From Octopus vulgaris (taxonomy: Eukaryota), in contig OX597817.1 of NCBI GenBank assembly GCA_951406725.2, positions 143,964,001 to 144,028,000 of the forward strand: 64,000 nucleotides of DNA, read 5' to 3'. Below are positions 8,515-64,000 of the stretch, piece by piece. The notes below the pieces were generated by a model, which worked only from the letters and a program-made list of their open reading frames with translations, did not search any database and was not told the DNA's origin. Each line of letters starts with the position of its first letter. Position 1 is the stretch's first letter. The position numbers and the translations under genes were made by a program.

Positions 8515-8569
8515 CCACAAACCAGGTTTCAGCTTTTGGGTATTTAAACCCTGAGCCTCGTCAGTGTGG
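8515..8569 (-). ncRNA. Type I hammerhead ribozyme, intact core
   Basis: ccaca-CTGACGA-ggct-ca-gggt(ttaaat)accc-aaa-agct-GAAA-cc(t)gg-TT-tgtgg. Stem I is 5 bp perfect, stem II is extended, stem III is minimal, and the cleavage triplet is GUU. Confidence 0.75.
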
Positions 8570-20112: not shown

Positions 20113-21359
20113 CATCGGGCTGGCCGAAAAGTTTGTTCGGTTTTTGTCGACACTGAACTTCAAGCACCCTAATAAGAAGCTAACGTCTGTCCCTTGCGCA
20201 TGGGCACTCGTTAGATACTTGACACTTTAACGCAGTTCGACAAAAAACTTGCGACGAAACAGGTTGTATTTTGTGTGCCTGGGATCATACTGAACATGAA
20301 GAACCAAAACGATGATCATTATCGATACCTCGTGCTTTTCTATGTAAAAAGAGAAAAAGAAAAGAAAAAGGGCAAGAAAACGACCGAAACCTGTAGGAAG
20401 ATATGAGCTGTGTACAGAGAAGATGCTATGACGGAACGTGTGTGCCAGAAGTGGTTTTCAAGACATCGATAAAGAAATTTTTCGGTTCAAGGTGCACCGC
20501 GCTCAGGCCTGCCAAATGAGATTAACAGCAACACAAAACCTCATTATACGACCAGGATGATTGCAAATATTCCCAAAATATCCAAATTGAATGTTATAAA
20601 CTATCTGCATCAACTTGGTTGTGTCAGCAGGCTCAATGTTCCACAGTAGATGAATGAATCTAACTTGGCCCAACGCATTTCCATCTGCGATTCGTTGCAG
20701 AAACATGAAGAAAATGGTCCTATTTTGAAGAGAATGATGACAGGGGGCGAAAATGGATCGTCTATATCAATGTGAAGCGCTAGCGATCATAGAGTAAGTG
20801 CGGCGAAGTACCACAAACAACCTCCAATGCAGGGTTTCGCCCAAAGGTCATACTTTCAATTTGATGGGATCTGAAGGTTGTTGTCTATTACAAGCTTTTT
20901 CCAATGGATAGGATCATAAATTCGGGTATGTACTGTGACCAGTTGGACAAATTAAACACAGCCATTCACCAGAAGTGCCCAACACTTGCTAATATTAAGG
21001 GCATTGTCTTTCATCACGACAATGCCAGACCGTATACTTCTTTGCAGACGCGCCAGAAGTTACTGGAGCTTGACTGGGACGTTTCACTGCACCCTCCATA
21101 TTCGCCCGACCTTGCACTTTCAGGTTTCTGTCTGTTTCTCAAATTTAATTGAATGGACAGACCTATACCTCTGTGGAGGATCTAACAATTCACCTGGAAG
21201 AGTTTTTCGTCACTAAAGACAGGAAATTCCCTGAGCAGGGGATAATGGATCTGTCCACAAAATGGCAGATGATACTGGAACGAAATGGTTATTATTTCAT
21301 TGATTGAATATATCGCTTAGTGTTTAAAAAACCGAACGGACTTTTTGGTCAACCCAATA
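20113..21359 (+). pseudogene. Full-length decayed mariner transposon (transposase pseudogene)
   Basis: TIRs tcgggctggccgaaaagtttgttcggtttt / aaaaccgaacggactttttggtcaacccaa; motifs VCQKWFSR, HHDNARPYTS, HPPYSPDLALS; multiple stops and frameshifts. Confidence 0.9.
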
Positions 21360-21510: not shown

Positions 21511-21561
<51 letters not shown>

Positions 21562-21563
<2 letters not shown>

Positions 21564-21905
21564 TGAAAAAACTACAGAAGACTTGTTTTATAAGGTTAAA
21601 GAATAAATTTAAGTCGTTATGTTAGAAAAATGTTTTGTGTATAATAACAGTTTTTGGAGAAATAACCGGTTTCGTATATTCTTTACCTACATCGTGTCAT
21701 GTCTGTGTTATGTAGTGCAAAGCTTTGCACTACTTAACAAAGACATGACACGATGTAGATAAAGAAATTTGAAAAGAATATACGAAACCGGTTATTTCTC
21801 CAAAAACTATGTTATTATACACAAAATTTTATAACATTTTTCTAACATAACGACTTAAATTTATTCTTTAACCTTATAAAACAAGCCTTCTGTAGTTTTT
21901 TCACT
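21562..21905. repeat. Fold-back element with a spacer-less central palindrome (gtagtgcaaagctttgcactac, 21712-21733), TA-flanked
   Basis: Arms agtgaaaaaactacagaagacttgtttt... / ...aaaacaagccttctgtagttttttcact. Confidence 0.9.
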
Positions 21906-21960
21906 CTTTTCTATTTTTTATACATCCAACCACGTACTTTCACACACCAACTTTTTCACC

Positions 21961-22066: not shown

Positions 22067-22422
22067 AATGGACAGTCTTGGACACGTGTTTCTGACTCAA
22101 TAGCATTCATCTGTGGCTTAATAGCCTTCATCAGTATATATGTATGTGCATATATATATATATGTGTGTGTTTATATATATATGTGTTTGTATGTATAGT
22201 TTATAAACGTGTCCATCCTACCCATATACGTGCAATGAGTTTTTATTGGATTTCTGATCTTCCCGGCTCCATATGAGGTACACACACTCACACTTTGTGT
22301 ATTAAGGCTACCATTGGTTTCATGTGAAGGAAATTCTCAACGTTTTTTCTATGTGATTGGCTTGAAAAATCGTTTAGTATTTCCTTCACATGAAACCAAT
22401 GGTAGCTTTAATACACAAACAA

Positions 22423-22454
<32 letters not shown>

Positions 22455-22676
22455 ATATGCCAAGTATGGAGCTGGGAAGATCAGAAATCCAATAAGAACT
22501 CTTTGCACGTATTGGGTAGGATTGACACGTTTATAAGCTACAAATACAAACACACATATATACATAATCACACACAAACACACATATATATGCACATACA
22601 TATATATACTGATGAAGTCTATTAAGCCACAAATGAAAGCTATTGAGCCAGAAACAATTGTCCAAGATTGTCCATT
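22067..22676. repeat. Fold-back element (~270-300-bp arms) with HHR-like cores in both arms and across the loop
   Basis: Arms 22067-22334 / 22379-22676; CTGATGA...GAAA-caattg-TC at 22609-22662 (+) and CTGATGA...GAAA-cacgtg-TC at 22134-22081 (-). Confidence 0.85.
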
Positions 22677-33900: not shown

Positions 33901-34319
33901 TATATTCTTTTTATTCTTTTATTTGTTTCAGTCATTTGATTGAGGCTACGCTGGAGCACTGCCTTTAGTCGAGCAAATCGTCCCCAGGACTTATTCTTTG
34001 TAAGCCTAGTACTTATTCTATAGGTCTCTCTTACCGAACCGCTAAGTGATGGGGACGTAAACACACCAGCATCGGTTGTCAAGTGATGTTGGGGGGACAA
34101 ACACAGACACACAAACATATACATATATATATATATATATACATATATACCCGACAGGCTTCTTTCAGTTTCTGTCTACCAAATCCACTCACAAGGCTTT
34201 GGTCGACCCAAGGCTATAGTAGAAGGTACTTGCCCAAGGCAGAACCGTGTGGTTGGTAAGCAAGCTACTTACCACACAGCCACTTCTACACCTATATATA
34301 TATATATATACATACATAT

Positions 34320-34782
34320 ATGCGGAGACGACTGCGCTGGCTCGGACACGTCTGCTGCATGCAGGACGGTCGCATGCCTAAAGACATCCTGTACAGCGAA
34401 CTCACCACGGGATCCCGACCCAAGGGACGTCCACAGCTACGATACAGGGATGTGTGCAAGCGCGACCTGAGGACTGCCAACATCTGTGTGGACACGTGGG
34501 AGGTAACAGCTGCTGACCGCTCTGCCTGGCGTCGGACAGTGAGGAAAGGCATTTCCATGGCTGAGGAAAGGAGAGCACAGCTGTGGTCGGACAGGTGGGA
34601 CAGGAGGAGGACAACTGCAGCAACACCCCACACGTACCCATCGATGTTCGTGTGCAGCAACTGTACCAGGGACTGCCACTCTAGAATTGGACTGTTCAGT
34701 CACAGCAGACGCTGCTCATCATCAAAGTAGGCCCCACCCTTGGCGCGACCCATTGTCTATCAAGACAGACGGGGGAAGAGAG
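34320..34782 (+). mobile_element. 5'-truncated RTE-clade LINE (ORF C-terminus plus short 3' UTR)
   Basis: RRLRWLGHVCCMQDGRMPKDILYSEL..G.RP.GRP.LRY.D..K.DL and terminal zinc-finger-like CSNCTRDCHSRIGLFSHSRRC; inserted in a TA/TACA tract. Confidence 0.9.
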
Positions 34783-41029: not shown

Positions 41030-41520
41030 AATGAAATTATTGTATATAGTGCTCAGGTGCACCACAACTTGTCAAAAAGTGCATATAAAGCATATGTGCA
41101 TTGTACAAATGTCTGGGAAGTGAACAGTGTATGAGTCAGATACATGCTTGTGTGTTTATGGAGGAGAGAAAATCAGGTGTAGTGTTGGCGGATCTCAGGA
41201 AGTATGCAAGTTTTGAAGGATGCAGTGCTCCGACAACTAACAACTGATGTCGGCAGTTTGTTCCATGCTTCAGCAACTCTTAGCAGGAAAAAATGTTTCC
41301 GAAAGTCATGGGAGCTGTGCTGGTTTCTGACTTTGTAAACATGTCCACGGGTGTTAGACAGGTGGAATTTGAAAAGGTGCTCAGAGTTATTGTTTGTAAG
41401 ATGGTTAATAATTTTATGGGTGTCTGCCAAGTCAGCTGCCAGACGTCGGAGTTTCAATGTACCCATGCCCAGAGAAGTAAGGCGTTCAGAATATGGCAGA
41501 TGCCTGATGGAGGGTATTCT
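41030..41520 (-). mobile_element. CR1-clade LINE 3' end
   Basis: YSERLTSLGMGTLKLRRL..DL...HKI...TRGH..K......RKHFF..RV..AWNKLP..VV; (TTA)n tail. A second copy lies at 45365-45693. Confidence 0.85.
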
Positions 41521-41855
41521 CTTGTATATATATGTATGTGTGTGTCTTCGTGTCTGTGTTTGTCCTCCCATCATCACATGACAACTGGCATTGGGGTTTA
41601 TGTCACTATAACTTAGCAATGCAGCAAGTACCAGGCTTTTAAAAAAGTAAGTTCTGGGAGCCAATACATTCAACTAAAAAAATTCATCCAGGTGGTGCCA
41701 CAGCATGGCCACAGTTAAATGACTGCAACAAGTAAAAGAAAAAAAATACATACATACACAGACATGCACATAAACATACATACACAGACATATAGATACA
41801 TATATATACTTATAATATATATGCATGTGTGTGTGTGTATACATATATATACATA

Positions 41856-43398
41856 CACAGACATGCAGGAAGTAAATAGACACCTTTAATTTTCAAAATT
41901 TCTTATCTAAGCATCTTAATATGATTTCAGTGGTGTAGAATTTATTCTTTTTCATTTCAGGTGCCATTATATTAAACATTTGTGAAGAGTAACCATGCCA
42001 CGCACAAAAAATTCAGCAGAACGGTCAGATTTTCAAAGAGGTCGTATTGTAGGATAATCTGAAGCTGGTCTTAGCCAGCGAAAAATTGCTAAAAATCTTC
42101 AAATTCCTCTTGCTACTGTTAATAGATTTACAGAGATGCACTTGCATAGCAAGTGATTTCAACTGAGATCATGTGCTGAAACGAAAACAATTGCAGCATG
42201 GAAGGTGTTTGTAAGCCATTTAAGAAACACACAAAAGCCGTTCGATTCACTTCAACATTTAAGTTTAATTTGTCAAAATATTTTCGTCGCTTTAAGACTG
42301 CGACCTGTTTACTGACAAAAATCTGTGCTGCATCTGAATCGAACGGCTTTTGTGTGTTTCTTAAATGACTTACAAACACCTTCCATGCTGCAGCTGTTAA
42401 TAGAATTATAGTGCAATTCAAAGGCCAAGGAAAAGACTCAACAGATTCTCATCCTGGCCGACCTGGGTTCTCAGAAAGGAAGCTTCACTGTTTGAAAAGA
42501 ATTGTGGAAAATGAACCCTGTTCGAAGGCTTCTGACATTAGAAAACAGCTAGAAGATAGTCCAAGAATGTGTGTTATATATCTGCATAAGCTTGGGTATT
42601 ATGGACGAGCAGCTAGAAGAAAACCTCTCCTTCAGCCAATTAATATCATGAAAAGAAAGAAATGAGCTAAGGAGATGTCAGAAAAAACGGTTCATTTTGG
42701 TATAGAATGATTTTCTCAGATGAATCCAGATTTGCTTTATTTTCAGACAGTGGACGTGTTTGGGTCTGGAGGCTTCCCTATCAAGAATTTTATTTGAATT
42801 GACTCCAACCAATTGTGAAACATGGCAGTATCTCTGTAATGGTATGGGGAGCTGTCACCAACAATGGTCGTTCTGAGTTGATCAAATGTGTTGAAACCAT
42901 AAACTCTGAAAAATACATTGAAAAACTTAAGCAAGGACTACTTCCGATGTATTCACACGATAACATAATGAAAAATGAGTTTTAATTCATGGAAGATGGG
43001 GCTCCCTGCCACACAGCAAAAAGGCATTAACAATGGCTGACAGAAAATGGGATCAAAAAGCTTCCTTGGCCGAGCCAATCTCCTGACATGAAACCAATTG
43101 AAAATCTTTGGAGTATACTAGACAGAGCTATACGAAGAACTTGACAGAAACCTAAATCTAAAGATGAATTGTTTTGATTGTTGCGTGAAAATTGGGCAGA
43201 AATTCCACAAGAGACAATCACAAAGTTCATCAGTTCAAAGCCAAAAAGAGTTTCTGAATTAAAAACTGCAAAGGGAATGTCAACTAAATACTAAAATATG
43301 TGGTCCTAGCTGTCGATTACATTTCATTTGTTCGCTTTGCATATTAAGTAAAAGATTTTGAAAATTAAAGATGTCTATTTACTTCCTACATGTCTGTG
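41856..43398 (+). pseudogene. Tc1-like transposon, decayed transposase
   Basis: TA|cacagacatgcaggaagtaaatagaca... / ...tgtctatttacttcctacatgtctgtg|TA; motifs [43 protein letters not shown]. Confidence 0.9.
42127..42393 (-). mobile_element. 267-bp hairpin-forming insertion with an HHR-like scaffold inside the Tc1 ORF
   Basis: 11-bp TSD ctgttaataga (42116-42126 / 42394-42404); 58-bp inverted arms 42192-42249 / 42335-42392. Confidence 0.85.
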
Positions 43399-50077: not shown

Positions 50078-51290
50078 AGAGAAATGGGTGGCTTGCAGAG
50101 AAATGGGTGGCCCCTTGCAGAGAAATGGGTGGATAAGGTGATAGAGGTAACCAGAGTGTTTGATAGTGTACTTAAGCTCAGGCAAATTTTGCAGAATAGT
50201 ACTGCGACAATTATCTCTGCCTATGTCTTCCAAGCGGATCTACCAATTGAACAAAAGGACTGCTTTTATGATATTCTTCTGCAAGCTACCTCAAGGATGA
50301 GTGACAATAATCTCCTCTTTGTGGCTAGGGATTTCAATGGGCATGTCAGGTAGCAGTATGGTATCTTCCATAGTATACATCCAGACGTATGGTGATGTGG
50401 TTGTGGACTGGTGCTGTAGACAAGACCATTTGAACAAAGAAACCGGTCTGGAAGGCCTGGAAGTGTGAGCATAGCAGGGAAATGTATTAGATAACCAGAA
50501 GGGAAGCTAGGGGACAGGTATATCTAGCCAGGGTTGACGTCTGCCTATGCTCAGTAACATGAGGTTCAAAGATTTGAACTGTTTCAGATTGTATGTCTAC
50601 ATGGATGATAGTGCACTTAATGTAATGATTCTGCAAAGAAAGAGGCTTGGAGATGCCATTATGAAAGACTGTTGAATGTGGAGAATGAATGGGAGGAGGA
50701 GAGTCTGCCAAATGTGGACCCAACTGAGGGACCAGCTATCTGAATTGACAGTAGCTTAGTAGATAAAGCAATTAATCCCCTGGCCCATCAGGTATTTCTG
50801 CTGAGATGCTTAAAATTTCAGGCAAAGTAGGATATAGCCTAGTCACCTGTGCAGTTAATCAGGTTGTAGATGAGGGAGTCATACCCAATGATTGGTGTAG
50901 CAGCATCATCGTCAACTGTTACAAAGGTAAAGGTGGTGCCTTTGACAGAAATAACTACAGAGGTACCAAACTGTTGGACCAGGTGATGAAAGTCACAGAA
51001 AGGGTCTTAGCTCAATTAATTAGGAAGAAAATTAGCATAGATGAGATGCAGTACAGATTTGAGCCAGGCAGGAGCATGACTGATGCTATATTCCTAGTTA
51101 GGCAACTGCAGGAGAAATATCTAGCCAAAAATAAACCCCCATACCTAGCTTTTGTCGACTTAGAGAATGACTTTGACAGAGTCCCCTGCTCCCTTATCTG
51201 GTGGTCAATGCAGAAGCTAGGGATAGATGAGTGGTTGGTGAGAACAGTACAAGCCATGTACAGGGATGCTGTCAGTAAGGTTAAGGTTAG
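50078..51290 (+). pseudogene. RTE-clade LINE fragment (APE endonuclease plus N-terminal RT), deleted and decayed
   Basis: IISAY..Q...KDCFYD...DFNGHV; IPNDW..S.IV..YKGKG..DRNNYRG.KLL; QY.F.PGRS.TDAIF.VRQLQEK; AFVDLE..FDRVP. Confidence 0.9.
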
Positions 51291-51959
51291 ATTTCAGACA
51301 AGAGAGTCAACTTCAAATGCAGATGGAATCTTGCCGCTTTATTCTGTGGTGGTTGCTTTTTGTTGGTCTCAGTTTCCATATTTTTTTCATATTTATTGTT
51401 TTCTACTCTAAGCACAAGGCCCAAACCTTTGGTGGATTGGGGCCAGTCGATTGGATCAACCCCAGTATGCAACTGGTACTTAATTTATTGATCCCGAAAG
51501 GATGAAAGGCAAAGTCGACCTTGGCGGAATTTGAACTCAGAACACAAAGACAGATGAAATACCTCTAAGCATTTCGCCCAGCATGCTAACGTTTCTGCCA
51601 GCTCACTGCCTTTTTTGGAGAGGAGGACAAGTCGATTAGATTAACCCCAGTATGCAACTGGTACCTAATTTATTGACCCTGAAAGGATGAAAGGCAAAGT
51701 CGACCTTGGCGGAATTTGAACTCAGAATGTAAAGACAGACGAAATACCTCTAAGCATTTCGCCCAACATGCTAACGTTTCTGCCAGCTCGCTATCTTCAT
51801 ATTTATTGCCTTATTTTTCATATTCATTGCCTTATTGCTAGTGACAGCAGCAGCAGTGGTGACGGTAGTAGTGGTGGTGGTGGTATACCAGTAACTGTAA
51901 CAGTTGGTCAACTCATTGTTTATCTGGCAAAGGCAGTGTTGTTATTCTTGCTGTTGTTG

Positions 51960-54353: not shown

Positions 54354-54571
54354 TATATGCATGTGTGGGTACAGGACGTCATGAAACATGTACAACAAAA
54401 AAGTACGAAGCACGAGTGCATGGAACATGAATTGTTCTTTCGAACAATGAGAGACACAAATGGAAGAAAAAACCCAAACAACATAAAGAACAACCCTTCA
54501 TTAGTTGCTGGGTGTTTTTCTAGTCTTATATTTTGATCATTTAACAACAATATATGCTTATATATATATAT

Positions 54572-55005
54572 ATAACTTATAAAATAAGGGCAAAAGAAAA
54601 ATTCTAATGTCAAATATGCCGAAAAAAAAACAAAATTGTCAATAATCATTATAATTAATACGTCTCAAAACAAGCCGATAGAAATTTCTAAAAAATCCGT
54701 TATTACCATATTGGTCCCAATTTTAGAGTTAATTCATAAAAAATTTTCTCCTCATCAGCGATAAATACATAAGACATGGGTATGAGTAAGTATTTCATTT
54801 ATGTCTTATGTATTTATCGCTGATGAGGAGAAAATTCTTATGAATTAACTCTGAAATTGGGACCAATACGGTAATAACGGATTTTTTAGAAATTTCTATC
54901 GGCTTGTTTCGAGACGCATTAATTATAATGGTTATTGACAATTTTGTCTTTTTTTCGGCATATTTGGCATTAGAATTTTTCTTTTGTCCTTATTTTATAA
55001 GTTAT
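54572..55005. repeat. Fold-back element (~205-bp arms, 23-nt loop) with an HHR in each arm
   Basis: Arms 54572-54777 / 54801-55005; TA-flanked; non-inverted relative at ~57366-57735. Confidence 0.9.
54813..54876 (+). ncRNA. Type I hammerhead ribozyme, intact core
   Basis: ttatcg-CTGATGA-ggag(...)ctct-GAAA-ttgg(ga)ccaa-TA-cggtaa. Confidence 0.75.
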
Positions 55006-55109
55006 TTATAAATTTAACCTTTAAAGGTATTTTTTGATATGCTGGCCATTGATAAAATTTGTTTTAGAAAAAAAATTTTATCCTACATTAGTTGTATATA
55101 TATATATAT

Positions 55110-55203
<94 letters not shown>

Positions 55204-55305
55204 GGATAGATTGATAGATAGATAGATAGATATATAGATAGATAGATATGGTGATGCAAACAGGAAAAATAGAACTATTTTTATTAATCACTCTGTTACT
55301 TCTAC

Positions 55306-55372
<67 letters not shown>

Positions 55373-55578
55373 ATGTATATATGTATATATACATACATAC
55401 ATACATACATAATTAATAATATCAGGGTAATAAAGATTTTAGAAATTTTTACTACCAGTGGCCTATGACTACATTCATACATATATAGGGGGAGAATTCA
55501 CAAGAAAAACAAAAGACGAAGACAGGTGATGTAGAAAACAAACAGGTGTATTAGTATAATGCTCAGGAATTGAAAAGG

Positions 55579-55616
55579 TCTTTTATGTTTCGAGCCTACG
55601 CTCTTCCACAGAAAGG
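55579..55616 (-). ncRNA. Minimal hammerhead motif, same family as 18132
   Basis: cttt-CTGTGGA-a-gagc(gtag)gctc-GAAA-ca-TA-aaag. Confidence 0.45.
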
Positions 55617-55868
55617 AACACAGAAAGAAACAAGATATATACATATATATATATATATATAATTTCAGTAAAACAATTAAGATTCAAGTGAATTCCAATG
55701 AATGCGGTACTTAACTTAGATGCACCAGAAATTTTTATGGTATTAACCATAAAATAATGTGGGGTGATTATAAACAAGAAAAAAGCAACAAGAATGGATT
55801 TAAATAAATCTGTTCTTCGTATGAAACAATTGTACTGAACAACTAATCCATTCTTGTTGCTTTTTTCT

Positions 55869-55905
<37 letters not shown>

Positions 55906-56304
55906 TCTTTTACTTGTTTCAGTCATTTGACTGTGGCCATGCTGGAGCACCACCTTTTTAGTCAAGCAAATCGACCCCAGGACTTATTCTTTGTAAGCCT
56001 AGTACTTATCCTATCGGTCTCTTTTTGCCGAACCACTAGGTTACGGGGACGTAAACACACCAGCATCGGTTGTCAAGCGATGTTGGGGGAACAAACACAG
56101 ACACACAAACATATACACATACACATACATATATATATATATGTATATACGACGGGCTTCTTTCAGTTTCCGTCTACCAAATCCACTCACAAGGCTTTGG
56201 TCGGCCCAAGACTATAGTAGAAGACACTTGCCCCAGGTGCCACACAGTGGGACTGAACCCGGAACCATGTGGTTCATAAGCAAGCTACTTACCACACAGC
56301 CACT

Positions 56305-56354
<50 letters not shown>

Positions 56355-56382
56355 GATTGAATGCCACGCATCCATTCCCAAG

Positions 56383-56414
<32 letters not shown>

Positions 56415-56765
56415 TATAGATAAATGAAAGAATGGAGTCGAACGATGATTTAACAAAATTCCTTTATTCTCGACATATGTTTCGAAGACTGCATATTCTT
56501 AATTCCAAAGGAATAAAGGGTGCATTATGCCGCTTTCTCATCAGACTGCTCACACAGAGTCACTATGGACTCTGTGTGAGCAGTCATCTAAAAGTTTTTG
56601 TTCGTCATGATGCTGACATAAGTTCCTTGTCTTTCCTGATGAGAAGGCGGCATAATGCACCCTTTATTCCTTTGGAATTAAGAATATGCAGTCTTCGAAA
56701 CATATGTCAAGAATAAAGGAATTTTGTTAAATCGTCGTTTGACTCCATTCTTTCATTTATCTATA
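56415..56765. repeat. Fold-back element (~130-bp arms) with HHRs in both arms and a nested perfect 18-bp hairpin
   Basis: Arms 56415-56544 / 56636-56765; gactgctcacacagagtc-actatg-gactctgtgtgagcagtc at 56544-56585. Confidence 0.9.
56632..56712 (+). ncRNA. Type I hammerhead ribozyme, intact core
   Basis: tttc-CTGATGA-gaaggcggcata(...)tatgcagtcttc-GAAA-catatg-TC-aaga; the other arm has gaga, which pairs with tttc. Confidence 0.7.
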
Positions 56766-56901
56766 GTAAAAAAACACACAAATTTCCACATGAAAGCACG
56801 TGATTTCTGCCCTTGGCATGGAGCTTCAACCGTGCTTTCTGACGTAATTTTGCTACCGGGTATCGGTTAACCGAATTATCCATACTAGGATTATTCATTC
56901 A

Positions 56902-56971
<70 letters not shown>

Positions 56972-57513
56972 GCATGTATGGGTACAGGACGTTACCAACT
57001 GTGTTAACAATAGGAAATACGTAGACAAACAAGTTAAATACATAAACAACGAGAAAAAAAATGGAAGACAGGACAAGTAAACTCAGAGAAACGACCCTTC
57101 ATCAGTTGTCACCTGACTATCTACTTCGCATATAGAGCATTCAACGTACGTACATACAATAACACACGCGTTTATATCTGTGTGTGTGCGTGTGAGAAAG
57201 TGTCAGCTCATGCATGAATGCATCCCACTATTGACATTCACGAGCCTTGCTTATCCCTATTTCAGCCTGCAGCAGGGTGTGGATGTGGAGTTGCTAGCAA
57301 GCAAATATACATACATACATACATACATACATACATACACACATACATACATACATAAATACATAAACAATTCATAAATAAGGGCAAACGAAAAAATTTC
57401 TAATGCCAAATATGCCGAAAAATTGGACATATTGTCCATTAACCATATAATTTTTTCGCAATACGCATGCTACTCGGAAAAAGGGCGACAGAAATTTCTA
57501 AAAAATTGCATTA

Positions 57514-57573
57514 TTACCATATTGGACCGATTTCAGGGTTAGCTCATAACAGCCCTCCCTTCGTCAGTGATAC
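57514..57573 (-). ncRNA. Type I hammerhead ribozyme, relative of 54813
   Basis: tatca-CTGACGA-aggg(...)ccct-GAAA-tcgg(t)ccaa-TA-tggta. Confidence 0.7.
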
Positions 57574-58237
57574 ATGTGGCAAAAGAAATAAATGAGATAC
57601 TCATACCCACGGAAGAAGCAAACACTAAGTCATGAGCACAATTAAGTACCCCATAAATTTAACCTTTAAAGGTATTTTTTAATATGCTGGCCATTGATAA
57701 AATTTTTTTCGAAAAAAATTTTATCCTACATTTGATACGTAAATACATACATACATACATACGTGTACACATACATATACAAAACACACATATATATATG
57801 ACAGGCTTCCATACAGTTTCCGTCTACTGAACTGATAGGCTGGTAGGGCACCAATGGATCCAGTTAATTTGTTTAAGTTGGACGTAATTTTCGTTTAACG
57901 GTTTGGTTCATTGAAAGTGGCTCTGCCTGGGATCTCCACAGAATCTCTGAGACCGACATGCTTGATGTCGTTGTTGAACAACCATATGTTGATGACAGCC
58001 GGGAAGAAATGGACAAGGAGAGAGACTCCAGTGGGGTAAAGTTTTAGAGAATAAGGATTAGGCTATTGTGGATTAGTATGAAGCTGATGGGGCAGATACA
58101 GTATGGGTGGTGGGAGGAGAAATTTCTGAGTTAGGTGGGTTCGGATGGAGACGGGATGATACAAGCCAACATCAAGGAATAGAGGCCAACACAAGAGAAA
58201 GAAATGAAATAAAACAACGATTTTATCAATGGAAATG

Positions 58238-62589: not shown

Positions 62590-64000
62590 TATATAAATAG
62601 ATGAGTGTATTTTTACCTTGTTAACAATTAACACGGAAAAATAAATAAATAGTTACCAGGGCAGCAAAAATCTCACAAGTAAAGGTGTTTAACTCCTTGT
62701 CATAAAGGTTGAAACTTCGTGTTTACGTTGAATATTTTGAATAATATGAATAAAAAATGGAGTTAACGCAGGTGTAAACAAGTATTTTTACTTTCGACAC
62801 ATGTTTCGAAAATTCCACTGATACTATTCAAAAGAATATATGGTATAAACAATGCAATCTTCTCTTCGGGAAAGTGAAAAAAACGAAACTCGTCAATACG
62901 ACATTTTAGCAAAAAATGATGGATTTGTATAGCAATAGACAGAACGCTATTAATATTGTTTAAAAAAACGTTATATGATATAACGTCATAAGTAGCTAAC
63001 AGAAAGAGTAGGGATATTAATAGTGAATGTTAAATATAAAGGAAATTAAAGTTTAAATTATTTATAATGATAGAGACTACTTATATGCACTAAATGTATG
63101 TTTTTGCCAATGCTTACATCTGTATGCTCGCTCTATAACCGTGTTTACTAGAGTATTTTTAGAAAAAATAATGAAAAATAGCTCAGAATTGCAGAGAAGA
63201 CAGAATTTCTTGCCTTTGTCATATGGTATCGAAATTGAGAGGATCAACCATTCTAAATGAAATTGTTCATTGTCGTCTTTTAAATCCCAAATCAGTTAGC
63301 TGAGACCGGTACTATTCCGTTTATTTCTATTCCTAAATGTTGAGTAATGGATAGAAATTCTTTTAGATAACTCTAACGATGTGCTTCCAACGTAAAATCG
63401 TACTTTATTACGAGTACTGTTTATACACTGGTATATAGAATTTTTAATCTTAGAGTTACTTGACATAAATTTAATTCTATTGGAATTGACTTCAGATACA
63501 ATAACGTTGTTATTAATATTTCTAGAGGGTTGGATGGTATTAGCTAAATTAATGTTAGTATGTTAGTATTAGTAAATGTATTAATATTTAACAGTTTGTT
63601 ATTATGAGAAGATATAATTTGCAAGAGATTTTTTGTGTTTGAAAAACCTATCCTAACCTTATGTGAATTAATTATAGAATAATATCTAGAATTGTTTGGA
63701 AAATTCCTAGCAATAGCTTGACGAAACAGCAGTGGGAGATTAGATTTAATTTGTCTCCCGTAAGGAATTATTAACCAAATATTTTTACTAGTATTCATAG
63801 CATAATTACTTTTGAAGGTGTTATATTTACTTTTAGATCGATAATAGGGGATTAAATAAGGGTTATCTGCCTTCATTCGCTTTGTATCGGTGCGTAAGTT
63901 ATGTTTGTTATCAATAATTCTTTTACGACTAGAAATCTTATCTATATTATTGAATTTACAATTAGACTGAACAGAATCAATGTAGAAAATTTTTTCTGTA
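62590..64000 (-). mobile_element. Penelope-like retroelement 3' part (post-RT linker plus GIY-YIG endonuclease pseudogene plus 3' pseudo-LTR)
   Basis: 63544-63876 IWLIIPYGRQIKSNLPLLF...NFP...IINSHKVRIGFSNTKNLLQIISSHNNKLL. Then, after a stop and a frameshift, 63442-63077 reads SIYQC...FYVGST...KRISIH..TF...STGLS*LIWDLK...W.IL...PY....CLLC.SE...N...E...CKH. Confidence 0.85.
62790..62875 (-). ncRNA. Hammerhead ribozyme in the PLE 3' pseudo-LTR (U4>C variant)
   Basis: actttc-CCGAAGA-gaagatt(...)aattttc-GAAA-catgtg-TC-gaaagt; perfect 6-bp stem I, ~200 nt downstream of the GIY-YIG stop. Confidence 0.7.

Follow-up and report, generated by a model that had tools for sequence, protein, structure and literature searches.

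A 64-kb stretch of the Octopus vulgaris genome (GenBank assembly GCA_951406725.2, contig OX597817.1, positions 143,964,001 to 144,028,000 of the forward strand; hereafter the window, numbered from its first letter) contains two related repeat insertions, copy 1 and copy 2, each carrying a type I hammerhead ribozyme motif (Table 1). The window is rich in microsatellites and holds many interspersed repeats, with a G+C content of 28-47% in 2-kb bins, and the insertions themselves are flanked by (TA)n and (CATA)n microsatellite. Copy 1 consists of an inverted truncated copy of the repeat, then a direct copy, then a tail; in copy 2 the inverted copy is longer and only the tail follows it, so that no hairpin forms. 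The arms of copy 1 (54572-54777 and 54801-55005; 206 and 205 base pairs, bp) differ by 9 mismatches and 1 gap in 206 columns, and the whole is a near-perfect 434-bp palindrome inside TA repeats. Copies 1 and 2 are 72.8% identical over 261 columns, and their terminal blocks (55008-55089 and 57653-57732) 95% identical over 82 columns, bearing out a first-pass annotation that had described one full fold-back with 205-bp arms and a second element ending in the same terminal block.

Table 1. Features of the two hammerhead-bearing insertions and of other repeats in the window.
Feature	Position	Strand	Description
Copy 1, left arm	54572..54777	-	Inverted, 5'-truncated duplicate of the hammerhead repeat; ends at (TA)n, without tail
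Copy 1, spacer (23 nucleotides, nt)	54778..54800	+	Direct-copy stretch absent from the inverted copy; homologue at 57585-57609 (-) in copy 2
Copy 1, right arm	54801..55007	+	Direct copy of the repeat, resembling a pseudo-long terminal repeat (pseudo-LTR)
Copy 1, terminal block (tail)	55008..55089	+	Same-strand continuation of the right arm in family contigs
Copy 2, single arm	57367..57609	-	Diverged subfamily, read as inverted copy; includes the spacer homologue
Copy 2, 43 nt upstream, beyond spacer	57610..57652	-	Copy 2 only; possibly parent-element sequence (seen in this copy alone)
Copy 2, tail	57653..57732	+	Orientation opposite to its hammerhead arm; read as sole remnant of the direct copy
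Type I hammerhead, copy 1	54814..54874	+	Helix I of 6 bp, core, helix II of 4 bp plus 5-bp extension, palindromic helix III
Copy 1, helix I	54816-19 / 54869-72	+	atcg / cggt; full 6 bp are 54814-19 / 54869-74
Copy 1, core	54820-26; 54853-56	+	CTGATGA; GAAA
Copy 1, helix II	54827-30 / 54849-52	+	ggag / ctct
Copy 1, helix III and cleavage-site bases	54857-66; 54867; 54868	+	Palindrome; U; A17
Type I hammerhead, copy 2	57515..57572	-	Core intact, helix I of 5 bp, helix III palindrome imperfect
Third motif, left arm of copy 1	54703..54764	-	G12 to A at 54724
Second, unrelated head-to-head fold-back	56415..56765		130-bp arms, 4 mismatches; between copies 1 and 2
Reverse transcriptase fragment	50776-51408	+	Pfam RVT_1
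Long interspersed element (LINE) C-terminal-like frames	34260-34730; 41173-41673	+; -	By eye, without Pfam match
Tc1/mariner transposase fragments	20865-21149; 42369-42662	+; +	

The tail is one-sided in both copies, 82-87 nt long, and both inverted arms end within about 5 nt of the start of the terminal block, which places the boundary between repeat and tail there. An assembly fold-back artefact was rejected, since 10 of 206 columns differ between the arms and independent evidence comes from copy 2 and from the public contigs described below. Within the tail, 55027-55091 resembles a possible 65-nt GT-AG intron (AAG followed by GTATTT, ending in CATTAG); in loose ends of the family an ATG comes after this putative intron, and the AG is lost in copy 2. 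Open frames running from arm into tail, judged by eye, hinge on homopolymer lengths.

The hammerhead motifs were first reported at 54813 (+), with stems atcg/cggt and ggag/ctct, and at 57514 (-), with atca/tggt and aggg/ccct, both keeping CTGAYGA, GAAA and the UA site; all of these elements are present in the sequence (in copy 2, on the minus strand, CTGACGA at 57567-61 and the UA site at 57521-20). Copies 1 and 2 share the full type I architecture of CUGANGA, GAAA, UH and three helices with an open-ended helix I, and the predicted cleavage site of copy 1 lies after A 54868. A third motif, in the left arm of copy 1, departs from this architecture through its G12A change and is predicted to be inactive. 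Under a strict descriptor, three motifs were found in the window (copies 1 and 2 and a solo motif at 8564, minus strand), compared with none in 30 of 30 Markov-shuffled windows. The conserved G10.1-C11.1 pair is missing from both copies, being G-U in copy 1 and A-U in copy 2.

Taking the structure of copy 1 as reference, 4 of 19 pairs are changed on both sides across the three motif copies, a count reached by 20 of 500 shuffles. One lies in helix I (54819-69: G-C in the right arm, G-U in the left arm, A-U in copy 2), one in helix II (54829-50), and two (54834-45 and 54835-44) in the helix II extension. The four-bp stems initially quoted thus contain two double-sided changes (G-C to A-U in helix I, A-U to G-C in helix II) and one that is one-sided (G-U to A-U). 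Between copies 1 and 2 alone, 4 of the 15 helix I and II pairs are compensated, 2 are changed on one side and 2 are broken; under the observed substitution spectrum, the probability of at least four compensated pairs is P = 0.004. The copies differ at 45 of 221 aligned positions, at 16 of 60 in the motif region and at 0 of 12 in the core, an invariance with P = 0.015 relative to the motif region. Because all four changes are double transitions, the two copies by themselves yield only P = 0.004-0.05, and their covariation is suggestive, not decisive, evidence that pairing has been maintained.

A broader view of the family comes from public sequencing contigs matched to 54779-55092 at 80% likeness in four runs, two of DNA (X1 and X3) and two guessed to be RNA (X17 and X9), the contigs of the latter carrying no strand, end or level information. 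Part of copy 1 is contained in 20 of the 24 listed runs, which span four organism labels and ten studies, and family contigs number 5,794 in X1, 3,828 in X3, 287 in X17 and 163 in X9. The family is clearly abundant, presumably with thousands of copies, the depth sums themselves giving no copy number. Position N7, the one free position of the hammerhead core, is occupied in X1 and X3 by A (41 and 45%), C (31 and 38%), G (26 and 14%) and T (1 and 3%), and among the variants listed (40 of 53 table rows) it is the only site with three common alternative bases; among the same variants, no other core position reaches 4% in X1 or X3. The X1 tally by kind of change covers all C and G changes. For helices I and II, every one of the variants listed has a pairing-compatible reading, and the partner changes 54829 A>G and 54850 T>C occur at similar shares, summed over contigs and unlinked: 38 and 35% in X1, 51 and 49% in X3, 50 and 60% in X17, and 13 and 17% in X9. 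A further change, 54852 T>C, restores G10.1-C11.1 and is found at 35% (X1) and 50% (X3). With 4 of 15 pairs changed on both sides, N7 free and the shares at 54829 and 54850 matching, the earlier proposal that pairing was kept while subfamilies diverged is upheld.

One X9 contig combines G54819A and C54869T with a core change at 54823, the linkage being inferred from a shared depth value. This copy-2-like variant (record 25, 54779-54913, depth 293.6) has helices I and II fully paired and 54823 A>G in its core, a change also present in the DNA run X3; perhaps it is an inactive copy that a stable transcript tolerates. A slight excess of A>G and T>C changes in X9 was set aside: it comes largely from one contig, whose core A>G is the one also present in X3.

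The contigs also bear on the orientation of the tail. The passage from arm to terminal block is crossed on one strand (for example X3 records 21, 54881-55034, and 22, 54881-55031), and in X1 and X9 the loose ends past 55090-91 consist of (TA)n, which puts the end of the family near 55091; together these observations identify the block as the 3' end of the hammerhead-sense strand. Three single contigs in the set change strand at other positions, a weak hint that inversion points vary among insertions. The annotation had proposed that hairpin length varies by insertion event, which fits both the difference between copies 1 and 2 and the literature discussed below, on a sample of only two complete copies and three strand-switch contigs. 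A pattern scan found no relatives in Joint Genome Institute (JGI) metagenome contigs and none in viral contigs; as the pattern was derived from both copies, its match in their own window is circular and was not used as evidence.

Folding predictions separate what the family preserves from what the inserted copies may do. As a monomer, the copy 1 motif is predicted to form helix II and its extension with pair probabilities of 0.91-1.00 and helix I with only 0.02, its core being paired with helix III and so sequestered. The lowest-energy homodimer of copy 1, by contrast, is exactly the double-hammerhead fold with an intermolecular helix III, at -31.5 versus -24.0 kcal/mol for two monomers. In the full fold-back, all five hammerhead pairs tested have probability 0.00, and a transcript reading through from either strand would run into an antisense copy ahead of the ribozyme. 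The beginning of the core is able, in both subfamilies, to base-pair with helix III on its 5' strand (54819-54824 with 54856-54860; 57568-57564 with 57530-57526 on the minus strand), and the changes in copy 2 that weaken the palindrome reinforce this inhibitory pairing, which may possibly represent a conserved off-state.

We separate the two parts of the first-pass claim of a functional ribozyme. Maintained pairing is supported; that the present copies are functional ribozymes is not, given the left-arm G12A, the zero probabilities in the fold-back, the predicted misfolding of copy 2, the missing G10.1-C11.1 pair and the marginal two-copy covariation under a transitions-only null. The inserted copies are predicted to be mostly silent or decaying. 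Since the left-arm motif is mutated, the fold-back buries both motifs in a long duplex and copy 2 is predicted to misfold, the conservation signal belongs to the lineage that transposes, and it was probably there, and not in these copies, that selection on the ribozyme acted.

Taken with the layout, this pattern makes it likely that the two insertions are truncated 3' ends, pseudo-LTR plus tail, of a Penelope-like element (PLE) or of a non-autonomous derivative of one. The PLE traits found are a hammerhead with palindromic helix III inside the repeat (imperfect in copy 2), a head-to-head inverted 5'-truncated copy and AT-rich microsatellite flanks. Such insertions could arise if a parent locus were transcribed through tandem pseudo-LTRs, and two hammerheads, joined through their palindromic helices III, then cleaved the precursor as a double hammerhead. 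The reverse transcriptase/GIY-YIG protein of a PLE would nick AT-rich microsatellite DNA and copy the RNA from near its 3' end, after which synthesis would halt early and an inverted truncated copy would be added. In copy 1, a long direct copy (tail, arm and spacer) plus a 206-bp inverted copy would give the full hairpin; in copy 2, a direct copy reduced to the tail plus a longer inverted copy would give none.

The layout as a whole corresponds to the published signature of PLE pseudo-LTRs. PLE pseudo-LTRs contain hammerheads with palindromic helix III, low, dimer-dependent activity and families rich in compensatory changes, with opposite-strand pairs 100-700 bp apart and an alignment that includes the molluscs Lottia and Crassostrea (Cervera and de la Pena 2014, PMC4209133). 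Craig et al. (2021, PMC8557442) describe a 5'-truncated copy in inverted orientation, a tail of 30-40 bp at a single end, a (TA)n preference and a 75-bp intron in the 5' untranslated region of Penelope, and head-to-head is the commonest inverted PLE arrangement (Arkhipova et al. 2013, PMC3846280). The octopus family resembles the pseudo-LTRs of endonuclease-positive (EN+) PLEs in its type I hammerhead, palindromic helix III, predicted dimer action and compensatory families (PMC4209133, PMC3846280, PMC8557442), as well as in its opposite-strand pairs at most a few hundred bp apart, head-to-head truncated inversion, one-end tail and (TA)n flanks. It differs from them in a longer helix III, a palindrome of 10 nt centred on GA, in lacking an extra base after A9 and in a helix II with an internal loop and a 4-5-bp extension, and also in having no linked open reading frame (ORF) and in the length of its tail. 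The Poseidon element PAc of Anolis offers a second likeness: a pseudo-LTR hammerhead, an AT-rich target and a tail explained by alternative internal reverse-transcription starts, hammerhead cleavage being dispensable for insertion in vitro (Frangieh et al. 2024, PMC11167929). The PAc ORF, however, begins inside the hammerhead, whereas ATGs in the octopus motif reach stops within 7 codons and no protein is known. Cephalopod Naiad/Hydra PLEs share the (TA)n insertion preference in Octopus, but canonical hammerheads are missing in Naiads (PMC8557442), and two 20-nt stretches of the octopus family were not found in the text of supplement S1 of that work. PLEs make up 6.83% of the O. vulgaris genome, in 190 families, in an account whose excerpt does not mention ribozymes (PMC13282606); octopus repeats are treated further in PMC8967140, and PMC6765202 provides a review.

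A number of observations weigh against the PLE reading. PLE membership stays unproven because the defining ORF is unlinked and the tail is twice the usual length: the tail measures 82-87 nt rather than 30-40 bp, the only RVT_1 match lies 3 kb away with no PLE ORF linked, and a Pfam search of the 275 window ORFs (at least 62 amino acids, low-complexity removed) gave no GIY-YIG domain, as truncated ends would lead one to expect. No target-site duplication can be clearly made out at the copies. The motif departs from the minimal hammerhead ribozyme (min-HHR) consensus in lacking an extra base after A9 and in its longer helix III; Rfam returned no match at gathering score across the window, and at E values up to 5 in 54400-57900 it returned 53 matches, none a hammerhead and most of them microRNA models on microsatellites or hairpins. 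Relative to whole-arm divergence, the invariance of the core is weak (P = 0.06), and a transitions-only null gives P = 0.05 for at least four compensated pairs and P = 0.27 for at most two broken ones. In the contigs, subfamily descent alone could match the shares of the partner changes, and five X1 changes beyond the variants listed (1 A>G, 2 T>A and 2 T>C) might involve an A or U of the core. The copy 2 dimer prefers a core-sequestering, non-hammerhead fold (-34.9 versus -25.3 kcal/mol), and the dimer energy gain of copy 1 (-7.5 kcal/mol) was dropped as evidence, being equalled by 78 of 200 random stretches, so that only its topology is retained. As for target duplications, a 10-nt repeat flanking copy 2 was considered and left uncounted, as it overlaps element-like and microsatellite sequence.

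The absence of a linked ORF also suits a dispersed non-LTR retrozyme, a non-coding unit cut to monomers by its hammerheads, circularised and reinserted in trans by a PLE enzyme. With 6 bp in helix I and 4 bp in helix II, the motif conforms to the canonical type I architecture (PMC4209133), the unit of about 310 nt falls within the retrozyme size range (PMC7229834), and derivation from PLE pseudo-LTRs, together with solo monomers, has been reported (bioRxiv 10.64898/2026.07.22.740005). Animal non-LTR retrozymes are likewise non-coding, about 300 nt long, low in G+C and linked to PLEs, with canonical-like type I hammerheads, but they form head-to-tail tandem arrays that give rise to circular RNAs (PMC7229834; bioRxiv 10.64898/2026.07.22.740005), whereas the octopus copies lie scattered and in inverted orientation, their tail fixed at the 3' end. 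The window contains no head-to-tail tandem copies; none of 14 contig joints is a labelled go-back joint near the cleavage site, in contigs that lose rare forms; and the family has a fixed 3' end with a one-sided tail and shows inversion, not tandem repetition. We regard a retrozyme as unlikely.

Less probable still is a palindromic miniature inverted-repeat transposable element (MITE), or other non-autonomous DNA transposon, moving as a fold-back with the hammerhead as an inherited relic. The 434-bp palindrome of copy 1 in TA repeats and the Tc1/mariner remnants in the window would fit, and a palindromic Harbinger repeat is known in Xenopus (PMC5625713). The tail nevertheless lies outside the inverted arms and on one side only, copy 2 is single-armed, family contigs run from arm into tail on one strand, and N7 freedom with stem compensation calls for RNA-level selection; neither copy shows the criterion for such elements, inverted repeats at the two termini together with a fixed target duplication. 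We would give very little weight to the remaining account, a decayed relic in which compensation reflects chance two-sided transitions inherited by subfamilies: the transitions-only null, the lack of an Rfam hammerhead match and the predicted misfolding of copy 2 all agree with it, but it has to contend with all four bases occurring at N7 and at no other site among the variants listed, with descriptor matches in none of 30 shuffles and with a copy 1 dimer whose lowest-energy topology is the double hammerhead. The truncated PLE ends thus remain our preferred reading.

Copies 1 and 2 are not the only hammerhead-bearing repeats in the window: two further hammerhead families share the head-to-head fold-back, bringing the hammerhead-bearing fold-backs to 3 in 64 kb, and 5 motifs compare with a shuffle mean of 0.3 and a maximum of 3 in 200. 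In the fold-back lying between copies 1 and 2, each arm carries the elements CTGATGA, long helix II, GAAA, palindrome CATATG and TC, and the helix I strand on the 5' side cannot be recognised; at its centre lies a further inverted repeat of 17 bp (about 56545-56586), and on one side (TA)n is reached after some 140 nt of unique sequence. The helix III end of this element is weakly similar to 62752-62810 (73% over 60 nt, E 0.002). A large, decayed fold-back at 22067-22676 (80% identity) contains one hammerhead core per arm (22134 minus, 22609 plus), and the helix III palindromes of the two differ, CACGTG and CAATTG, and are both still self-complementary. The solo type I hammerhead at 8564 (-) represents a fourth family, with helix I of 5 bp, helix II of 4 bp and a short helix III, and a 101-codon frame (8560-8258, minus) that begins at this motif gave no Pfam match. 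No hammerhead core was detected in three other fold-backs of 210-360 bp (729-1003, 21553-21914 and 42186-42398), the first two of which are bounded by TA repeats.

Protein-coding remnants are few: the Pfam search of the 275 ORFs gave three matches, RVT_1 (50776), Transposase_1 (20865) and HTH_Tnp_Tc3_2 (42369). The reverse transcriptase fragment has 71 matches, in which Argonauta hians (66%) and Octopus bimaculoides (53%) are the only eukaryotes named, other named matches bearing bacterial labels or 'hypothetical'; it is presumably RTE-like. The commonest short repeat of the window (for example at 55900-56310) resembles what we take to be octopus short interspersed elements (SINEs). The first-pass annotation had included neither the fold-back between the two copies nor the left-arm third motif, the changes in the helix II extension or the PLE pseudo-LTR layout.

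The element is real and of the already known PLE pseudo-LTR kind, and for PLE specialists it holds nothing surprising; the hammerhead-bearing repeat family itself is apparently previously undescribed, in that the articles and supplements searched yielded no description of cephalopod PLE hammerheads, though Repbase or Dfam may already contain the family. Its fold-backs are candidate ADAR or Dicer substrates. Adenosine-to-inosine (A-to-I) hyper-editing in octopus has been measured without repeat annotation (PMC5625713), and a more speculative and rather improbable proposal is that the family is a non-autonomous octopod Penelope derivative whose tail is a retained 65-nt spliceosomal intron, and that its head-to-head fold-backs and those of sister families, with ribozymes placed behind antisense copies, might be a main genomic source of the long near-perfect double-stranded RNA driving this editing. 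That proposal draws on the density of fold-backs in the window and on sequence signals. More directly, thousands of copies in several subfamilies provide material for a real covariation test and for a map of inversion breakpoints, and such a map is relevant to the still unsettled origin of the inverted pseudo-LTRs of PLEs.

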